A stretch of DNA of 64,000 bases from Myxococcales bacterium (GCA_016707895.1 JADJGV010000002.1:655695-719694); one strand, 5' to 3'. Counted from the stretch's first letter, positions 1,392-13,737 are shown. Program-made: numbers and translations. The notes: generated by a model not told the origin, from the sequence alone.

Positions 1392-5566
<4,175 letters not shown>

Positions 5567-6222: not shown

Positions 6223-8316
6223 ATGAACCGTCGGGACTTCCTTCGCCTGTCCGGAACCTTCTTCGCCGCCGCCAGCCTCGGGGGCGTGGCCGCGTGTAGC
6301 GACGACGCCAAGCCCGCCACCGACGCCGGCATCGACGCGCCGCCGGTCGGGGCGTTCCTGTTCCCGCAGGGCGTCGGCTCGGGCGATCCGCGCGAGACGT
6401 CGGTCGTGCTGTGGACGCGCGCCGTGCCCGCGACCGGCGCCGCCAGCGTCGACCTCCGCGTCGAGGTCGCCAGCGACGCCGCCTTCGCGACGATCGTCGT
6501 GATGCAGTCGATCACCGCCGCCGCCGCCGCCGACCACACCGTGCGCGTCGTCGTCACTGGCCTGGCCGCCGACACGATCTACTACTACCGGTTCATCGCC
6601 GGCAGCGACTCGATCAACGGCCGCACCCGCACCGCGCCGGCCGCCAACGCCGACGTGCCGATCCGCATGGCGTGGGTCAGCTGCCAGGACTACGCCGCCG
6701 GCCAGTACCACGCCTACCGCCAGATGGTGCAGGACGACATGGCCCGCCCCGAGGCCGACCAGGTCCGCTTCGTGTTGCACCTGGGCGACTTCATCTACGA
6801 GACCCGCGGCGACGGCTTCCAGGCGGCGGTGGACGAGAACTTCCAGCCGATCACCGTCATGAACCAGGACGGGACGCCGCGCACGGTCGCCGCGTTCCCG
6901 TCGGGCGGCGGCACCGCCGGCACCTCGAACTTCGCCAAGACCGTCGAGGACTACCGCCACCTGTACAAGACCTTCGCCAGCGACCCCGACCTGCAGGCCG
7001 CGCGCGCCCGCTGGCCGTTCGTCCACACCTGGGACGATCACGAGTTCACCGACGACTGCTGGCAGTCGATGGCCAACTACACCGACGCCGAGGGGCTCGA
7101 CGAGCCGTCGCAGGCGCGGCGCTACGCCGCCAACCAGGCGTGGTTCGAGTTCGTCCCCTCGCAGCTGACGGGCGCGCTCGGCGTCACCGGCGTCACCCAG
7201 GACGCCCACGACTTCGCGACGGCGACGGTCGCCGACGCGCCGTTCACGACCGCGAACATCGACAACTTCGTGCCGGAGCCGAACAACGTCGCCGCGGTCG
7301 GCTCGATCACGATCTACCGCAGCCTGCGCTTCGGCCAGCACTACGAGCTGATCGTCACCGACGAGCGCTCGTACCGGAGCGACCACGCGATCCCGGAGGA
7401 GACGGCCGCGGTCGCTTTCGAGTACTTCAACCCGCGGTACGTCGTCCCGGCGGCCGACGTGGACGTCTGCGATGCTGGCAGTCTCAATCCGACGGGCGTC
7501 GTCTCGTCTCTCGGCGTGACCAACCCGCGCGCGACCGCGCCGGTCGGTACGATGCTGGGCAAGGCACAGAAGGACTGGTGGAAGGCCACGATGATGGGGT
7601 CGACGGCGACGTGGAAGGTCTGGGGCAACCAGGTCCCGTTCATGCGGTTCTTCATCAAGAACACCAACGGGTCGCTGGTCTCGGATCGCCTGATGGACGC
7701 CGACGCCTGGGACGGCTACCCGCGCGAGCGCCGCGAGCTGACGCAGTTCCTCGCGACCAACAACATCAAGAACGTGGTGCTCCTGACCGGCGACATCCAC
7801 GCGCACTTCGCCGGCACGGTGTCCGACGACTTCACGGCGGCGACGCCGACCGCGGTCGCCACCGAGTTCATCGCGGCGGGCATCTCGTCGAACTCGGTGT
7901 TCAGCTTCTACGAGGGCGCCTCGCGTGGCGGCACGGCGGCGGCGGCCCGCGCGCTGATCACCGTCGACGCCTCGGCCGGCGGCGGCAGCGCGTTCACCGA
8001 GAACATGAACCTGCTCTTGGTCCACGGCACCAACGCCGCCGGGACGTTCGCGCAGACGCGCGATCGGACAATGGCGCTGGCGGCGTCGGATCGCACGATC
8101 AACCCGCACCTCAAGTACGCCGACACCAACGCCCAGGGCTTCGGCATCGCCAAGTTCACCGCGACCCAGCTCGACGTCGTGCTGACCACGATGGAGCGCC
8201 CGATCGACAACTCGGCCGCCGTGAAGCGCACCGCCAGCTTCACCGTCCCCAAGGACAACCCCGCCGGCATGACCGGCCCCGAGCTCACCGGCACGTTGCC
8301 GTTCCCGCTGGCGTAA
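6223..8316 (+). CDS. phoD: Tat-secreted alkaline phosphatase / phosphodiesterase, PhoD family
   Basis: Twin-arginine signal (MNRRDFLRLSGTFFAAASLG). PhoD signatures HLGDFIYE and WDDHEF. 697 aa. Confidence 0.8.
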   Translation: MNRRDFLRLSGTFFAAASLGGVAACSDDAKPATDAGIDAPPVGAFLFPQGVGSGDPRETSVVLWTRAVPATGAASVDLRVEVASDAAFATIVVMQSITAAAAADHTVRVVVTGLAADTIYYYRFIAGSDSINGRTRTAPAANADVPIRMAWVSCQDYAAGQYHAYRQMVQDDMARPEADQVRFVLHLGDFIYETRGDGFQAAVDENFQPITVMNQDGTPRTVAAFPSGGGTAGTSNFAKTVEDYRHLYKTFASDPDLQAARARWPFVHTWDDHEFTDDCWQSMANYTDAEGLDEPSQARRYAANQAWFEFVPSQLTGALGVTGVTQDAHDFATATVADAPFTTANIDNFVPEPNNVAAVGSITIYRSLRFGQHYELIVTDERSYRSDHAIPEETAAVAFEYFNPRYVVPAADVDVCDAGSLNPTGVVSSLGVTNPRATAPVGTMLGKAQKDWWKATMMGSTATWKVWGNQVPFMRFFIKNTNGSLVSDRLMDADAWDGYPRERRELTQFLATNNIKNVVLLTGDIHAHFAGTVSDDFTAATPTAVATEFIAAGISSNSVFSFYEGASRGGTAAAARALITVDASAGGGSAFTENMNLLLVHGTNAAGTFAQTRDRTMALAASDRTINPHLKYADTNAQGFGIAKFTATQLDVVLTTMERPIDNSAAVKRTASFTVPKDNPAGMTGPELTGTLPFPLA

Positions 8317-8464
8317 GCGGGTTGCTCAGCGGCGGTCGGCGCGATAGTGCCGGGCCAGTCGTCGATGCTCGAGATCCACGACCCGGAAGGATGCCACCGC
8401 GTAGAATCGGTGGGTTGGCTCGCATTGTCGCTGGAATGCGGTCCGACCATGGTGCGGTTTGGGG

Positions 8465-8491
8465 AGATCGGCGGCGAGGGCGGCGTACTAT
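8465..8491 (+). promoter_or_regulatory. Conserved promoter block (AGATCGGCGG-N11-TACTAT) upstream of toxin-like gene copy 1
   Basis: The same block recurs with identical internal spacing (21 nt from the block start to the TA(C/G)TAT hexamer) upstream of copy 2 at 15149-15175. The -10-like hexamer lies 67 nt upstream of the ATG. Confidence 0.35.
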
Positions 8492-8557
8492 CTGCATCCC
8501 GTGGGAAACCGCGGCGCGTAGCGGCCGATAGCGGCGGCACCGGAGATCGAGGCACGC

Positions 8558-11500
8558 ATGAGCAGGGAACATCGCGATGAAGGCAAGGAAGCAGCACCGC
8601 CAGCGGCGAGCGTGGGCGCGAGCCCGACGCGCCGCGTGGACGCGCCTGTCGTGGACGCCGGCTACCAGGCTCAGTGCGACGCTCGCGTGCTCCAGTTTCT
8701 CAGCGCGCCGTTGCCGCTGACGCCGTCGGAGCGTGAGGCGCGCGAGGCTGGCGGTGATGCGAGCGGCGTGCACGCGGCCGCGGAGCGCGGTGTCTCGGGT
8801 GCTGCGACCGTGCTGCCGCACGGCGACACCATCCAGGCGGCCTTCGGCCCGCACGACATCTCTGGCGTGCGGGCCCACGTCGGCGGCGCCGCCGCCGACG
8901 CCTGCGGTGCGATGGGCGCGAGCGCCTACGCGACCGGCAACCAGGTCGCGTTCGCCGGCCAACCCGACCTGCACACGGCCGCTCACGAGGCCGCCCACGT
9001 CGTGCAGCAACGCCAGGGCGTCCAGCTGTATGGCGGCGTCGGCGAGGTCGGCGATGTCTACGAGCGGCAGGCGGATGTGGTGGCGGACGCGGTGGTGGCG
9101 GGCAAGTCGGCGGCGGGGCTCTTGGGGGCGCCGTCGGCGGAGGCTGTTTCAACGAAGTCAGTGCAGGCCTTCGGCGGGCTCTACATCGCAGGTGCGTCCC
9201 CAGCGGCGCAACCCGCCGCGAACGGCGGCGCGGCGCCGGCGTCGACCGCTGCGGTCACCGGTCCCAGCGTGAATCGGCTGGTGGCGACTGATCCGTCGGT
9301 CGAGTTCGGTCCGACGCCCGTCGGCGCGACGACGTACAAGCCGCTCACGTTCGTCAACCGGGGTGCCGAACCGGTGGAACCCAGCGACTTCGTCGTCCGT
9401 CCGGGTGTCAACGCTCAAGAGGACGACTTCAGCGTCGCCGGCGGCGACGCGACGAGCGGCGCCGCGCTCGCGCCGGGCGAAGCGATCTCGCTCCAGGTCG
9501 CGTTTCATCCGCACCCGCGTCCTGACCAGGATCCCAAGCGGTGGCCGGGGCGCGTCGCGCACATCGACGTGCTCGACCTCGCGGGCGCGCGGGCCGGTTC
9601 GGTCAAGGTGCGCGGGAAGCCGCGGCCGACCGATGAAGCGACGCAGGGGGCGCACGAGGCGGCAGAGTTGGTAGGTGCGAGCCGCAACCACGCCGACGTG
9701 GCGGCGCCGGTGTCGTACGCCGACATGCTCGCGAACCTGCGGGCCGCCCGTGAGCTGCTGTCGACCGGCGACCGTGATCACGCCCAGGCGCTGATCCACG
9801 CGGTGCGCGAGCGGATGGCCGGGACGCTACGCGAGGACAAGTCATGGCCGCGCCTGCGTGGGTTCGGCCTCGGCGCGCAGGCCGGCCTTCACCTGATCAA
9901 CGAAGCGTACGACGCGGTGGTGGCCGCCGACCGTGGCCTGGGTGCGGACTGGCGGGTCGACGGGGACAAGCTGGTGATGATGCTGGAAGCCGCGCGCGAG
10001 CCGATCCAGTTCGTCCTCAAAGAAACAAAGGACGCGCCGACGCTCCGCGCGTTCCACGACGCGTCGCCCGCGGTGATGGTGGGAAACGCGATCGAGGGGA
10101 TGGCCGAGCACACGATCGAGATGGTCACTGACGCCGAGTACACGGTCGGCTATCTCTCGGGCCTGGTCGAGGGCGCGTACGGCGCGGTCCGCGATCTCGT
10201 CATGGGCTTCGCCGACCTGGTCGGCATGACCGCCGACATCGTGAAGGCGATGTGGTCGCGCGGCTTCGTGGGCGCGGTCCAGCACTTCGGGCGCCAGGTC
10301 GCTGACATCTTCGACAAGGCGCCGGAGTTGCTCGAGGCGCTCGGTGCGGACTTCGCGCGCAAGTGGAACCAGCACGGCTCGTTCGACCGCGGGAACTTCC
10401 GCGGCGAGGTGATGGGCTACATCGCCATGCAGATCCTGCTCATCATCGCCACGGCCGGCGAGGGTGCCGCGGCCGCTGCGGGGCGGTGGCCGAAGGTGTT
10501 GCAGGTCATCCGCACGCTCGACGCCGCCGGCGACATCTTCACGTGGGCCGAGACGGCAGCCGACGGCGTCCGCGCGCTCCGCAAGGGCGCCAAGGCGGTC
10601 GGCAAGGCGGAGGACGCGGTCGACGCGGCCGGCAAGGGCGGGGGCAAGGTGCTGAAGATGGGCGGCGGCGGTGCGCCGGATGCGCCGTCGGCCGGCAAGG
10701 TCCCCGGTGGGCCGGAGGTCGACGCGCCGAAGGCGGGTGCGCCGCAGGCCGATGCGCCGCACGCCGATAGGCCGGCAAGCGCAGGCCCCGATGCTCCGCG
10801 CAAGGGCGGCCCGTACAAGGCCCCGGACGATCCGACGCGGGAGCCGCATCATCCCGTGCGCGCACTCGAGGATGACGAGCTCGCCAGCTCGAAGGACTTG
10901 CGCCCCGTTCAACGCGGACGAGACCTGGTCGCGGATGGCTCGCGCCCCGTTGGCAAGGTCCTGAAGACCCGAGCTGAAGGCGAAGCCATCCTCCAACTCC
11001 TCGCGCAAGGCGACCGAAACGCGCTCGCCGCACTCGACATCGTGGACATCCCGAAGAAGCTGAAAGTGACCGAGCGCGAGTGGGCGCTCGTGCAAACGCG
11101 CGATGGGTTTCTTGTGTACATCGGCGACGCGGCGAGGGTCGACTTGCCGGCGAATGTTCGCTCCGTAGCGCACAGCCATCCGACGCACAAGCAGGGAAAG
11201 CGCCTTGAGTTGGACGTCCCGGATGGAAAGGGCGGCGTAGCCTTCACGGATATCGTGAAAGATCCCCACAAGGCAGCGGACACGGGCCTTCTGCCGTCTG
11301 CCATGGATCTGCACGTCGTCTCCGATGGTACGGAACACACGCTCCATACGCAGTTCGTGATGGACTGGGATGGTACGATCACCAACGCGGTAGAGGGGGA
11401 CACGCGGCCACGCGTACAAGTACGCATCAGCAAGTCGCGGGTTATTCGCTACAACGAAGGCCGGAAAGGCTACTGGTATCAAGCGCAGTTGGACGTCAGC

Positions 11501-11632
11501 GCTGGCGGGCAGGCCATCTGGAGCGGCGACTTCTTCGGCCGAAGGTCCTTCATTGCCGCCGACGATCAGGTGAAGTTTCATCGTTTCCCGGAGCTGGAGT
11601 ACCCGCCGTCAGCGGACCAAGTCGATCCATGA
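8558..11632 (+). CDS. Large multidomain polymorphic-toxin-like protein, copy 1: N-terminal DUF4157 HExxH zincin-like domain, Ig-like (ASH/choice-of-anchor-D-like) domain, hydrophobic central domain, DAP-rich linker, conserved C-terminal domain of unknown function
   Basis: 1024 aa. N-terminus ([28 protein letters not shown] ... [16 protein letters not shown]) matches the DUF4157 pattern including HExxH. About 75% identical to the 15235-18342 paralog over the N- and C-terminal domains. 3' third is lower GC than the 5' part. Confidence 0.8.
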
Positions 11633-12519
11633 GTTGCTTCACCTATCCTGAGTTCTACACATGCTGTGACGGGCGGTTTCTCGTTCGCCGTCGTTTGATT
11701 CTGGGCACGGGGATCTACGACGGAATCCGGACTAGCGATCAGCGGCCTCTTCTCGTTACCAGCGTTCAGCCCCATCGACTCGATAGCTTGATCGATGCGA
11801 TCACGTATGAGGTACCAGGCACGACCAAGCTCCTGGGGGTTACACAGATCGATCTCGGCTCGTGGCAGCCGCAGCCAGGCGATGACCTTGACGATCCGTG
11901 CATCGACACAAAGGAGGACCTCCCTGAAGGATTCGTGCTGGTCGTCGAGACGCGGCCGGTTGGGCGGTCCCTTCGCATCCTGGGCCCAGGCGGGCCGCTG
12001 GGCGCTGTCGGTATCGGGCACGGGCTCCTTCTGACCGCGAGCGCCGCCGCACAAGCGGACGTGTTCCTCGAAGGGATCCGACCCGAGACCGTGTATGCGG
12101 ACGGCGACCTGTACAGCGGATGTCATGCACGCCTATGGCGCGTCGAGATGAGCCCACGGCGGCAAGCCGAGTTCCGTGGAGCCTTCGAACCCGGCGGCTT
12201 CTTTGCGCCGGAGATCCTGTGCTCTGAACCACCGACGCCGACCAGCGATGCGTTTGCGGCGGCGGCGGTACTCTGGTGGTTCGCCACTGGCAGCGATCCG
12301 TTCGGTGGTGCGAACGTGGACTTCACCCAGCGAATCGTCGACGGCCAGCTCGAGCCGTTCCAAGGACCTCCCGAACTCGGCGAGGTCCTGGTGCCGATGC
12401 TGGCGCGCGATCCCGCGGCCCGGCCGTCGGCGGCCGAGTCGGCGGATCGCCTCGCGGCGCTGGCCTGTCGCTGGGATGTGCCCATCGCGCCGTTTCCGCC
12501 GCCCGGGCTCGATCAGTGA
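11629..12519 (+). CDS. Pseudokinase-like partner protein (putative immunity/antidote) of toxin-like copy 1
   Basis: ATGA start/stop overlap with the upstream gene. Kinase-fold landmarks are present in order (Gly-loop [13 protein letters not shown]-like FAPEIL, subdomain [21 protein letters not shown], subdomain [12 protein letters not shown]). The beta3 Lys, HRD Asp and DFG are replaced (RPLLVT, GIRPE, YSG). Paralog of 18339-19223. Confidence 0.7.
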
Positions 12520-12538
12520 CCGTACGGGGAGCCAGCGA

Positions 12539-13033
12539 ATGAGCGGGTCGGATGAGCGATTCGACGACGTTGTCGACGTTGGCGAAGGACAGCATGCGCG
12601 CTTGCGCGACATCGCAAGACAGGACGCGAGTGCGGCATGTGCGGAGTTGGAGGCAATGCTGAGGAGCTCCAGCGGGTACCGGATCAGGCGATACGTCGAG
12701 GAGGTCCTCCTCGGCGGGGTAGATCACATGGCCTGGGCATCCGTGCACGGACGACTGCCCGACAAGGTAGCGCGCCTTGCTGGCGCGTTGGGGCGGCCGA
12801 TTGGCGATGCCGAGCTGAAATCGGTCGCGAGTGTTGCCGAGTTGCTGCCGATGCACGTCGCCGTCGTGCGCGAGTACTGTTCCAGGAAGGCTCTCGTCGC
12901 GGCGGTGCAGTACGTGCGATTCATCTGCGCGGCCAGGTTGGAGGTGGCGATGGACTATGTGGAGTATGTTGGAGCGGGTTCCATGCGTCACGACGACTGG
13001 GTTGCACGTCGCCTTCCGCACTTTGGCCCCTGA
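12539..13033 (+). CDS. Hypothetical cytoplasmic protein (lower-GC segment)
   Basis: ATG 19 nt after the upstream stop, with a GGGGA Shine-Dalgarno-like sequence. 164 aa. Codon usage has lower GC3 than host genes. No recognisable domain. Confidence 0.4.
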   Translation: MSGSDERFDDVVDVGEGQHARLRDIARQDASAACAELEAMLRSSSGYRIRRYVEEVLLGGVDHMAWASVHGRLPDKVARLAGALGRPIGDAELKSVASVAELLPMHVAVVREYCSRKALVAAVQYVRFICAARLEVAMDYVEYVGAGSMRHDDWVARRLPHFGP

Positions 13034-13737
13034 TGCGCCGGACGAAGTCGGTGCCCTGTGCGTGTACGCATGAGCCACGCGTCGCTGGTTGGTCGACCAC
13101 CGCGCGGCGGGTGTTCGAGCGGCACGCGACCGCGAACATCGTGGCGCTGATCGTGTGTGGGATTCCGGCGCTGTACCTCGTGACGCATGACCATGCGGTG
13201 CTGGGCGCGGCGCTGTGCGCCGGCCCTGCTGCGGCGCTGGCGTACGTGCACTGGTCCGCGCCGCCGCGGCAGCTGCGCCGGCTGGTTGCGAGGACCCGCG
13301 GACACCTTCCGTCGACGGACGGGCGCGTCGCGCTGCGAGGGCGGGTCGCGGCGATCGGTGCGCCGCTCGCCGTCCCCGCAACCGCGGCGGTGGGGGCGGC
13401 GTACTGGTGGCGCACCATCGACACCAGCGAAGGCAGCCCGGTGACGTCGGACGAAGGTGTCGACGCGACCGACTTCGTGTTGCGATGCGGCGACCAGTTG
13501 GTCGCGGTGGAAGGCCTGCGGGCGCGCGTGCTGTTCGATCCGCGGGACGCCGACGTCACCGATCGGGATGCCAGCGGCTGGCGCGAGGTCCAACTCGCGC
13601 GTGTGGGCGACGAGGTCGTCGTCGAGGGCTGGCTTCGTCTCGGTCCGAGCACCGATCCGCACCGCGCCGCGGCGACGCTGTCCGGGTCGGACGCGCAACC
13701 AACGATCGGGCTCATCGCCGGTGGCCGAGGGCGATGA
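13033..13737 (+). CDS. Hypothetical membrane protein
   Basis: TGATG overlap with the upstream stop. Hydrophobic helices IVALIVCGIPALYLV and LGAALCAGPAAALAYV. 234 aa. Confidence 0.4.
   Translation: MRRTKSVPCACTHEPRVAGWSTTARRVFERHATANIVALIVCGIPALYLVTHDHAVLGAALCAGPAAALAYVHWSAPPRQLRRLVARTRGHLPSTDGRVALRGRVAAIGAPLAVPATAAVGAAYWWRTIDTSEGSPVTSDEGVDATDFVLRCGDQLVAVEGLRARVLFDPRDADVTDRDASGWREVQLARVGDEVVVEGWLRLGPSTDPHRAAATLSGSDAQPTIGLIAGGRGR

Follow-up and report, generated by a model that had tools for sequence, protein, structure and literature searches.

In contact-dependent inhibition (CDI) and Rhs systems, the toxin tip and its cognate partner (CdiA-CT/CdiI and Rhs-CT/RhsI) are replaced together at a conserved junction immediately before the toxin domain. 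The G+C content of such exchanged cassettes often deviates from that of the remaining gene, and orphan immunity genes accumulate downstream. To our knowledge, cassette exchange in the DUF4157 class of injected toxins has so far been deduced from domain architectures and has not been seen at the breakpoint itself. DUF4157 marks the toxins of extracellular contractile injection systems (eCIS), in which it is usually N-terminal and separated by a long linker from a variable toxin domain (PMC8213781). DUF4157/PVC-metallopeptidase toxins have been described with variable C-terminal domains, and recombination of cassettes is a defining trait of polymorphic toxins (PMC8213781, PMC3482391). Here we describe a polymorphic toxin locus of an uncultured Myxococcota bacterium, contained in a 64-kb stretch of DNA from a metagenome-assembled genome (the whole stretch is hereafter called the window). 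The locus is predicted to comprise two tandem DUF4157 (PVC-metallopeptidase/eCIS core) toxin genes, each followed by a partner gene, and an adjoining AAA+ ATPase gene. Comparison with orthologous loci makes it very probable that the C-terminal tip of the first toxin (copy 1) and its partner were swapped by recombination in a linker, after the window lineage had split from that of its closest relative, represented by contig L011.

Toxin copy 1 (positions 8558-11632 of the window, + strand, as for all genes described below; 1024 residues) contains an N-terminal eCIS_core/DUF4157 domain (residues 92-154; Pfam PF13699, 47.2 bits for a cut-off of 22, with the motif HEAAH), followed by an Ig-like stretch, a hydrophobic Gly/Ala-rich pre-toxin region, a Pro/Ala/Asp-rich linker, and a C-terminal domain. 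The start codon of partner 1 (11629-12519, 296 residues) overlaps the toxin stop codon (ATGA). These two open reading frames (ORFs), and a third one located at 12539-13033 (164 residues), are called genes in six public metagenome assemblies. In toxin copy 2 (15235-18342, 1035 residues), the DUF4157/eCIS_core domain scored 33.2 bits for the same cut-off of 22, and HEAAH is present. Copy 2 is followed by partner 2 (18339-19223), and orthologues of the pair (15235-19223) were found at 88-97% nucleotide identity in contigs L011, L019-L022, and L024. The AAA+ ATPase gene (19278-21275; Pfam AAA, 1.1e-30) encodes an N-terminal winged-helix domain (WHD, 5e-14) and is conserved beside copy 2 in relatives (95.6% amino acid identity in L024). 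This ATPase is of the kind found in eCIS loci, and delivery of the toxins by a contractile injection system is assumed here. The same protein also gave a partial match to the model of the anti-phage ATPase IteA (111 bits for a cut-off of 510).

The organization of the locus is like that of PVC-metallopeptidase polymorphic toxins and eCIS toxins (PMC3482391, PMC8213781): an N-terminal DUF4157 domain with its HExxH motif, a long linker, a variable C-terminal toxin domain, a partner encoded directly downstream, tips exchanged by recombination, an orphan partner gene, and an adjacent AAA+ ATPase. The locus differs from these systems by the presence of two tandem toxins with homologous, anciently diverged tips, and by a domain and a partner that fall outside the Pfam, NCBIfam, and Tox-/Imm- families compared. 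It shares with CDI and Rhs systems the joint replacement of tip and partner, the deviant G+C content, and the downstream orphan partner. In contrast to CDI and Rhs systems, the junction is a low-complexity Pro/Ala/Asp linker rather than a VENN or PxxxxDPxGL motif, DUF4157 takes the place of a filamentous haemagglutinin or an Rhs shell as the delivery domain, and the window retains no displaced old tip further downstream. Alternative C-terminal domains on a conserved N-terminal part, a downstream partner that changes with the domain, and an orphan partner gene were all found, as in polymorphic toxins. Cassette exchange is the behavior expected of such loci, in agreement with the original prediction, made from the window sequence alone; the novelty is therefore limited to a new, well-resolved instance. 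What the locus offers is a clean, datable case of replacement of tip and partner in the DUF4157 class.

Residues 1-726 of copy 1, used as a query, identified two orthologues on contigs syntenic with the window, P0004 (852 residues, 90% amino acid identity, contigs L010 and L011) and P0005 (923 residues, 76% identity, contig L012). P0004 and P0005 share residues 1-735 and 1-696, respectively, with copy 1 and then carry, after the linker, another C-terminal domain, designated CT_B. At the nucleotide level, positions 1145-3478 of L011 match positions 8439-10763 of the window at 88.7% identity. A second match, at 88.3%, pairs positions 8641-13744 of L011 with 15242-20329 of the window (copy 2, partner 2, and the ATPase). 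Between 10763 and 15242, L011 and the window are unrelated except for one gene at 71%. The order in L012 is a PhoD gene (90.7%), the copy-1 orthologue (78% up to window position 10603), a 212-residue gene, and then directly the start of copy 2. CT_B has only the first half in common with the domain family of the window (hhalign probability of 69%, E = 4.5e-5, 77 columns including HTHP), and the CT_B partners (212 residues in L012 and 144 residues in L011) have no similarity to partner 1. In L011, CT_B is interrupted by an IS66-family element of three genes with a G+C content at the third codon position (GC3) of 0.94-0.96 (3773-6249 in L011 and 6588-9064 in L010). The end of the domain is found beyond the element as L11_135 (135 residues, 60% identical to residues 788-923 of P0005) and is followed by L11_144, homologous to the 212-residue partner of L012, both having been stranded by IS66. 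Among the compared loci, this element was found only in L011; it is not in the window. Together, these alignments indicate that the toxin tip and the partner have been replaced jointly in orthologous genes.

The position of the exchange was located in several ways. In a three-way alignment, copy 1 is L011-like up to GCGCCGCACG (approximately 10755-10763) and of the copy-2 type after it. GCGCCGCACG is a string shared at the junction, and high similarity to copy 2 starts at approximately 10711-10764. The linker at this junction is Pro/Ala/Asp-rich with DAPxxD-like repeats. The main change point in the GC3 of copy 1 is at nucleotide 10736 (likelihood ratio of 26.4, with 0 of 2000 permutations as high), and the comparative breakpoint at 10763 falls within its support interval (10646-10766). 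The breakpoint zone delimited by the GC3 support interval, the ends of the blastn matches, and the three-way alignment is thus 10646-10766. We propose that recombination took place within this zone of the linker, most likely at 10755-10763, and that homologous recombination was the mechanism. The incoming C-terminal domain, CT_A' (10764-11632, GC3 of 0.75), and its partner, P_A', form a cassette that is homologous to the resident one of copy 2 but separated from it by an ancient divergence. The original prediction had proposed that a homologous, diverged cassette took the place of the former C-terminal toxin domain and partner, which is supported by the other tip and partner present in L011 and L012. 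It had also suggested two comparisons, both of which were informative: alignment of the two copies delimits a block of 74.6% nucleotide identity from 10711, with homology to L011 ending at 10763, and comparison with related myxobacterial loci reveals the joint change of tip and partner.

According to this proposal, the earlier tip and partner of copy 1 would have been CT_B and P_B, kept in L011 and L012. The polarity of the exchange is deduced by parsimony. For the N-terminal and middle parts of the toxin, amino acid identity is 90% between the window and L011, 76% between the window and L012, and 71% between L011 and L012. The window and L011 are therefore sisters with L012 as the outgroup, and CT_B is most parsimoniously ancestral. 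The reverse swap, in which CT_A' and P_A' were ancestral and CT_B replaced the former in the L011 and L012 lineages, appears improbable, since it would require two gains of CT_B, or a gain and a reversal, and since the 60% identity of CT_B between L011 and L012 is consistent with vertical descent. Two observations speak for it, namely that only three genomes carry the segment containing copy 1, with a relationship deduced from this one gene, and that the GC3 of CT_B is also low, so that CT_B could equally be the incomer.

The second alternative concerns the segment as a whole. Contig L024 (metagenome-assembled genome of Myxococcales bacterium JAEUJY010000085, a GTDB species representative) matches the window up to approximately 8297 and again from 15072, window positions 8317-15072 corresponding to L024 positions 3417-3475. 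In L024, the PhoD gene is directly followed by the region upstream of copy 2, and a single toxin gene is present (GC3 of 0.965). Since L024 lacks the sequence between 8.3 and 15.07 kb, the copy-1 stretch is an accessory segment of approximately 6.7 kb (8317-15072), which is located between the PhoD gene and copy 2 and comprises copy 1, partner 1, and three small genes. The segment is present in L010/L011 and in L012. Direct repeats of the toxin 5' region, 69-85% identical and 6677-6684 nucleotides apart, flank the segment and are compatible with its gain or loss by unequal recombination. No other long repeats were found in the window besides these paralogous 5' regions, nor was any tRNA gene, and no integrase or transposase was detected among the ORFs scanned. 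As in genomic islands, atypical composition (GC3 of 0.73-0.85 versus 0.96 for the host) is associated with presence or absence of the segment, which is missing from L024; GC3 is under the host level throughout, except at 10028-10735. The locus therefore occurs in four natural states: without the segment (L024), with the old tip intact (L012), with the old tip split by IS66 (L011), and with the new tip (window). The absence of the segment from L024 and its atypical GC3 throughout would fit acquisition of the whole segment in one horizontal transfer, without any internal swap, the GC3 mosaic having already been present in the donor. We regard this as very unlikely. The N-terminal and middle parts match L011 as closely (88.7%) as the flanks do (88.3%), and were therefore inherited together with the flanks, yet the tip and the partner are wholly different. 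An event inside the segment after the split is therefore required, as proposed for the linker swap.

The relationship between the two copies was examined in protein and nucleotide (blastn) alignments. Copies 1 and 2 share a first module consisting of the promoter-proximal region and the N-terminus (8462-9103 versus 15146-15825, 69% nucleotide identity) and a second module extending from the linker to the end of the partner gene (10711-12512 versus 17418-19216, 74.6% over 1813 nucleotides). The middle parts are essentially unrelated in protein and nucleotide alignments. The number of synonymous substitutions per site (dS) and the ratio of nonsynonymous to synonymous substitutions (dN/dS) were 1.26 and 0.155 for the C-terminal domains, and 0.87 and 0.189 for the partners. 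The copy-1 cassette is 73-74% identical to each copy-2 orthologue found, these being 88-97% identical to copy 2 of the window. A recent intragenomic origin is therefore excluded, and recent duplication of copy 2, or gene conversion from it, was rejected on the basis of the 74.6% nucleotide identity and the dS of 1.26. Judged from these substitution patterns, the cassettes of copies 1 and 2 are homologues of long standing, and that of copy 1 has been under purifying selection. Codon differences preserving the amino acid have A or T in copy 1 rather than in copy 2 in ratios of 51:5 for the domain and 53:12 for the partner. This nearly exclusive GC-to-AT direction, together with a functional paralogue 6.7 kb away, is what decay of a redundant paralogue under relaxed selection and AT-biased mutation might produce. 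The probability of that explanation is very low given that dN/dS is 0.10-0.19 in every comparison, that the reading frames are intact, and that the invariant motif residues are kept. Moreover, the tip falls outside the group formed by all copy-2 orthologues, and L011 has another domain at the site. Pseudogene decay was therefore rejected (dN/dS of 0.1-0.19), and the incoming cassette is one that selection has maintained.

The composition break that accompanies the swap was analyzed at the level of synonymous positions. The G+C content of the window is 72.9%, and the GC3 of 24 clear host genes in the window is 0.958 ± 0.015, with a minimum of 0.92. Raw G+C changes from 0.75-0.77 (10500-10950) to 0.56-0.63 (10950-11850) and to 0.64-0.70 up to approximately 13200, before returning to 0.72-0.76. 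In copy 1, GC3 follows three steps, 0.849 (8558-10027), 0.949 (10028-10735), and 0.748 (10736-11629), and is 0.736 in partner 1 and 0.750 in the gene at 12539-13033. The GC3 of copy 2 is 0.93-1.0 throughout, with overall values of 0.96 for the toxin gene and 0.92 for partner 2. The differences between homologous parts are highly significant, both for the C-terminal domain (0.748 in copy 1 versus 0.937 in copy 2; Fisher p = 1e-9) and for the partner (0.736 versus 0.918; p = 4e-9). Codon counts reflect the same shift: GTT accounts for 14 of 758 codons in the low-GC3 block, 0 of 594 in the copy-2 homologues, and 0 of 2097 in host genes. For the same three sets, the counts are 7, 0, and 0 for TTT, 4, 0, and 0 for AAA, and 11, 3, and 3 for CGA; GCA and CTT are likewise enriched in the block. 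Raw G+C also dips in copy 2, to 0.64-0.68 over the homologous C-terminal domain, because G+C at the first and second codon positions is low in that domain. Copy 1 loses 0.092 in raw G+C, copy 2 loses 0.042, and approximately 45% of the raw drop in copy 1 is therefore due to amino acid composition. Only the GC3 part of the drop is specific to copy 1, and the break is real after this correction. An origin of the break solely in amino acid composition, to which the dip in copy 2 lends some credit, or in chimeric assembly, which could be suspected of a metagenome-assembled genome, is negligible in view of the GC3 difference of 0.19 between homologous domains (p = 1e-9) and of the identical copy-1 junction in six contigs, from independent assemblies of different samples by different assemblers, which match the window at 99.7-100%.

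Several details of the break had been anticipated by the original prediction and can now be refined. The drop from the 3' third of copy 1 through the partner and into 12539-13033 is confirmed at GC3 values of 0.73-0.75, compared with 0.96 for the host, as is the frequent use of AT-ending codons in this block. The break, placed at approximately 10900, does exist, with a GC3 change point approximately 150 nucleotides further upstream. The 5' two-thirds of copy 1 are host-like, as claimed, in raw G+C but not in GC3. Codons 1-490 have a GC3 of 0.849 versus 0.971 in the adjacent PhoD gene (p = 2e-14), and only the patch at 10028-10735 (0.949), defined by change points, is at the host level. This patch spans the pre-toxin hydrophobic region, which is weakly common to copy 2, and is also found in the L011 and L012 orthologues (0.93-0.96); conversion with resident paralogues is one possible cause. 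Copy 2, described as uniformly high in G+C, is so for GC3 and not for raw G+C. Accordingly, the two observations that would have spoken against the break, a uniform profile or the same shift in copy 2, were not made for GC3, the raw shift being partly present in copy 2. Finally, the atypical region does not end at approximately 13.1 kb, as had been thought: GC3 is still 0.84-0.85 in the genes at 13033-13737 and 13734-14531, and the host level is reached again only with copy 2 at 15235. Two cautions follow for the use of composition at such loci, since raw G+C overstated the break approximately twofold and since low synonymous G+C belongs lastingly to the cassette position and does not serve as a time stamp.

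The latter point emerged from the relatives of the cassette. The closest known relative of the copy-1 cassette is P0001 (contigs L001 and L002), with 82% amino acid identity, 77% nucleotide identity, and 0.126 nonsynonymous substitutions per site (dN), compared with approximately 0.2 to the copy-2 clade. The GC3 of P0001 is 0.64 and that of its partner fragment 0.57, next to a gene fragment just upstream at 0.96; low GC3 thus accompanies the cassette in other hosts of high G+C too. In L011 and L012, GC3 values are 0.68-0.82 for CT_B and its partner, and the orthologues repeat the three-step GC3 profile of copy 1. Since low GC3 is found with CT_B at the same site, the break belongs to the cassette position itself and does not record only the most recent swap. 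In other Myxococcota/Kofleriaceae contigs (L013 and L026-L029), the domain and partner have a GC3 of 0.70-0.83 beside genes at 0.89-0.98, and high cassette GC3 was found only in the copy-2 lineage and in L025. The GC3 of the N-terminal and middle parts has remained unchanged while the flanks diverged by 11%. The values for L001, for CT_B, and for L013 and L026-L029, together with this static N-terminal GC3, weigh against recent arrival from a lower-GC genome. The "lower-GC donor" of the original prediction is an inference, the nearest relative of the cassette being even AT-richer yet located beside a gene with a GC3 of 0.96. An AT-richer source pool, provided by another lineage or a mobile element, would be the simplest explanation. 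The new cassette and the orphan partner of a third type behind it retain a GC3 of 0.73-0.75 against 0.96 for the host. A word-indexed homologue search with the copy-1 C-terminal domain returned two fragments only, a first contig scan returned nothing, and a scan of metagenomes for partner 1 yielded partners of the copy-2 type alone, at 76-78% identity, and no donor.

Two fragments among these relatives have unusual structures. In L001, a DUF4157 toxin breaks off after its first 11 codons, and a truncated C-terminal domain follows out of frame; the arrangement resembles a deletion remnant or an orphan. In L003 (67-510), the end of a domain of the copy-2 type runs into the N-terminus of a Gfo/Idh/MocA-like oxidoreductase, through a rearrangement or a chimeric contig.

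The following points weigh against the proposed linker swap or limit its scope. The older CT_B also has a low GC3, and composition alone therefore neither dates nor proves the swap. No donor was found, the nearest relative (L001, 82% amino acid and 77% nucleotide identity) being itself in a high-GC3 context. All comparators are metagenome contigs, some of them short. The alignments do not delimit the replaced stretch on its 3' side: for the next alignable gene (13808-14514), identity to L011 is as low as 71%, and no alignment is obtained for 14515-15241. Of eCIS-type genes, Pfam scans of the large ORFs across the 64-kb window detected only the AAA+ ATPase and no sheath, tube, or baseplate gene, in contrast to the systems described earlier (PMC3482391, PMC8213781).

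The incoming domain belongs to a family for which we propose a catalytic function. A HMMER scan of 1.84 billion cluster representatives identified 88 proteins with the C-terminal domain, which is usually located at the very end of proteins of 260-4700 residues, many of them with DUF4157 N-termini. In an alignment of 29 sequences (26-73% identical), H98, H100, P101, S140, and D143 are invariant, and E67 and W68 are nearly so; the motif, E..HxHP..SxxD, corresponds to E841, H872, H874, P875, S914, and D917 in copy 1. The pattern E, H[ST]H, S, D, which is listed for Tox-JAB-2 (PMC3482391), is kept in this family and suggests that the domain is a JAMM-type metallohydrolase. The domain differs from Tox-JAB by an insert of approximately 38 residues between HxHP and PSxxD and by an extra C-terminal beta-sheet. 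The 29 members gave no Pfam match to JAB, Prok-JAB, RadC, DUF4329, or Toxin-JAB1 at E values up to 10, and a profile search of the PDB gave no JAB-type match for the domain. A likeness of its last beta-sheet to cystatin/affimer proteins (profile positions 191-249, approximately residues 965-1020 of copy 1; E = 0.03-0.1 in the PDB) was treated as chance or a shared hairpin.

The partners resemble protein kinases. Pfam Pkinase matched the C-lobe only, with 18.8 and 15.8 bits for a cut-off of 31.7, and NCBIfam returned weak kinase matches. At the site of the kinase motif HRDLKPEN, the partner family has an invariant G[IL]RPE; DFG is missing, and C-lobe motifs of the DxW/RP type are kept. These features suggest a pseudokinase-like fold, partner 1 (GC3 of 0.736) being kinase-fold-like without the catalytic residues. 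In the comparison with Tox-JAB, the kinase-like partner also differs from Imm65 and Imm-NTF2-2. The domain and the kinase-like partner are adjacent in seven of seven distant loci, at identities down to 37% for the domain and 28% for the partner. Because of this adjacency, the ATGA overlap, and the replacement together with the domain, partner 1 is probably the cognate neutralizing (immunity) protein; a role as co-effector or loading factor is the alternative reading. If the partners are pseudokinases, their fold would be uncommon among immunity proteins.

The locus may thus combine an undescribed family of JAMM-type toxins, an immunity protein with a catalytically dead protein-kinase fold, and persistently AT-richer cassettes that circulate in high-GC Myxococcota and resist amelioration, with only the copy-2 lineage at host composition here. 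We put this joint reading forward tentatively, at somewhat less than even odds. Among the Tox-JAB and Imm entries retrieved from the catalogue of Zhang et al. (PMC3482391), the pairing of a JAMM toxin with a dead kinase was not found. The uncharacterised JAMM-like domain with its pseudokinase-like partner, which is directly testable, the orphan partner gene, and the AT-rich cassettes in several high-GC hosts add to the interest of the locus.

The gene at 12539-13033 lies in a module (12531-13042, GC3 of 0.75) of different origin from the cassette that precedes it. The homologues of its product, P0210 (76% identity) and P0211 (40%), are encoded in L030-L035 directly after a different toxin C-terminus, their start codons overlapping the stop codon of the preceding toxin gene, and nucleotide similarity to L030 is limited to the module. 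No gene resembling partner 1 was found ahead of the P0210 and P0211 homologues in L030-L035, no homologue of the 12539-13033 gene was found after the domain/partner pair in seven other loci, and the toxin of this third cassette type is absent from the window. The gene is thus best read as an orphan, putatively immunity-like, partner gene of a third cassette type that is not part of the toxin/partner cassette. Orphan immunity genes are typical of polymorphic toxin loci (PMC3482391). The toxin C-terminus of L030-L035 is unannotated and displays the motifs ENKLNFQREW, SFGxHRAxRGY, and VDLGPP. A 157-residue "gene" located after the partner in L013 was considered as a relative of 12539-13033 and discarded, since it is unrelated and looks like an out-of-frame artefact.

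The next two genes (13033-14531, GC3 of 0.84-0.85), as called in public assemblies, are translationally coupled. The first (13033-13737) encodes 234 residues with hydrophobic helices and is membrane-like, and the second (13734-14531) encodes 265 residues with a lipoprotein-like N-terminus. Neither these products nor that of 12539-13033 had a Pfam or NCBIfam match. The L011 homologue of the 265-residue protein is 62% identical (71% at the nucleotide level) in spite of flanks at approximately 88% nucleotide identity, and the gene is therefore fast-evolving or was also exchanged.

The remaining genes of the window include polysaccharide-synthesis, PhoD, ribosome-recycling, UMP-kinase-like, kinase, and glycogen-synthase genes. 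For copy 2, the longest ORF begins at an ATG at 15196, yet its first 31 codons have a GC3 of 0.71. The likely start is 15235, in keeping with the public gene calls and with a step in GC3 at codon 31, and a protein start at this position matches that of copy 1.

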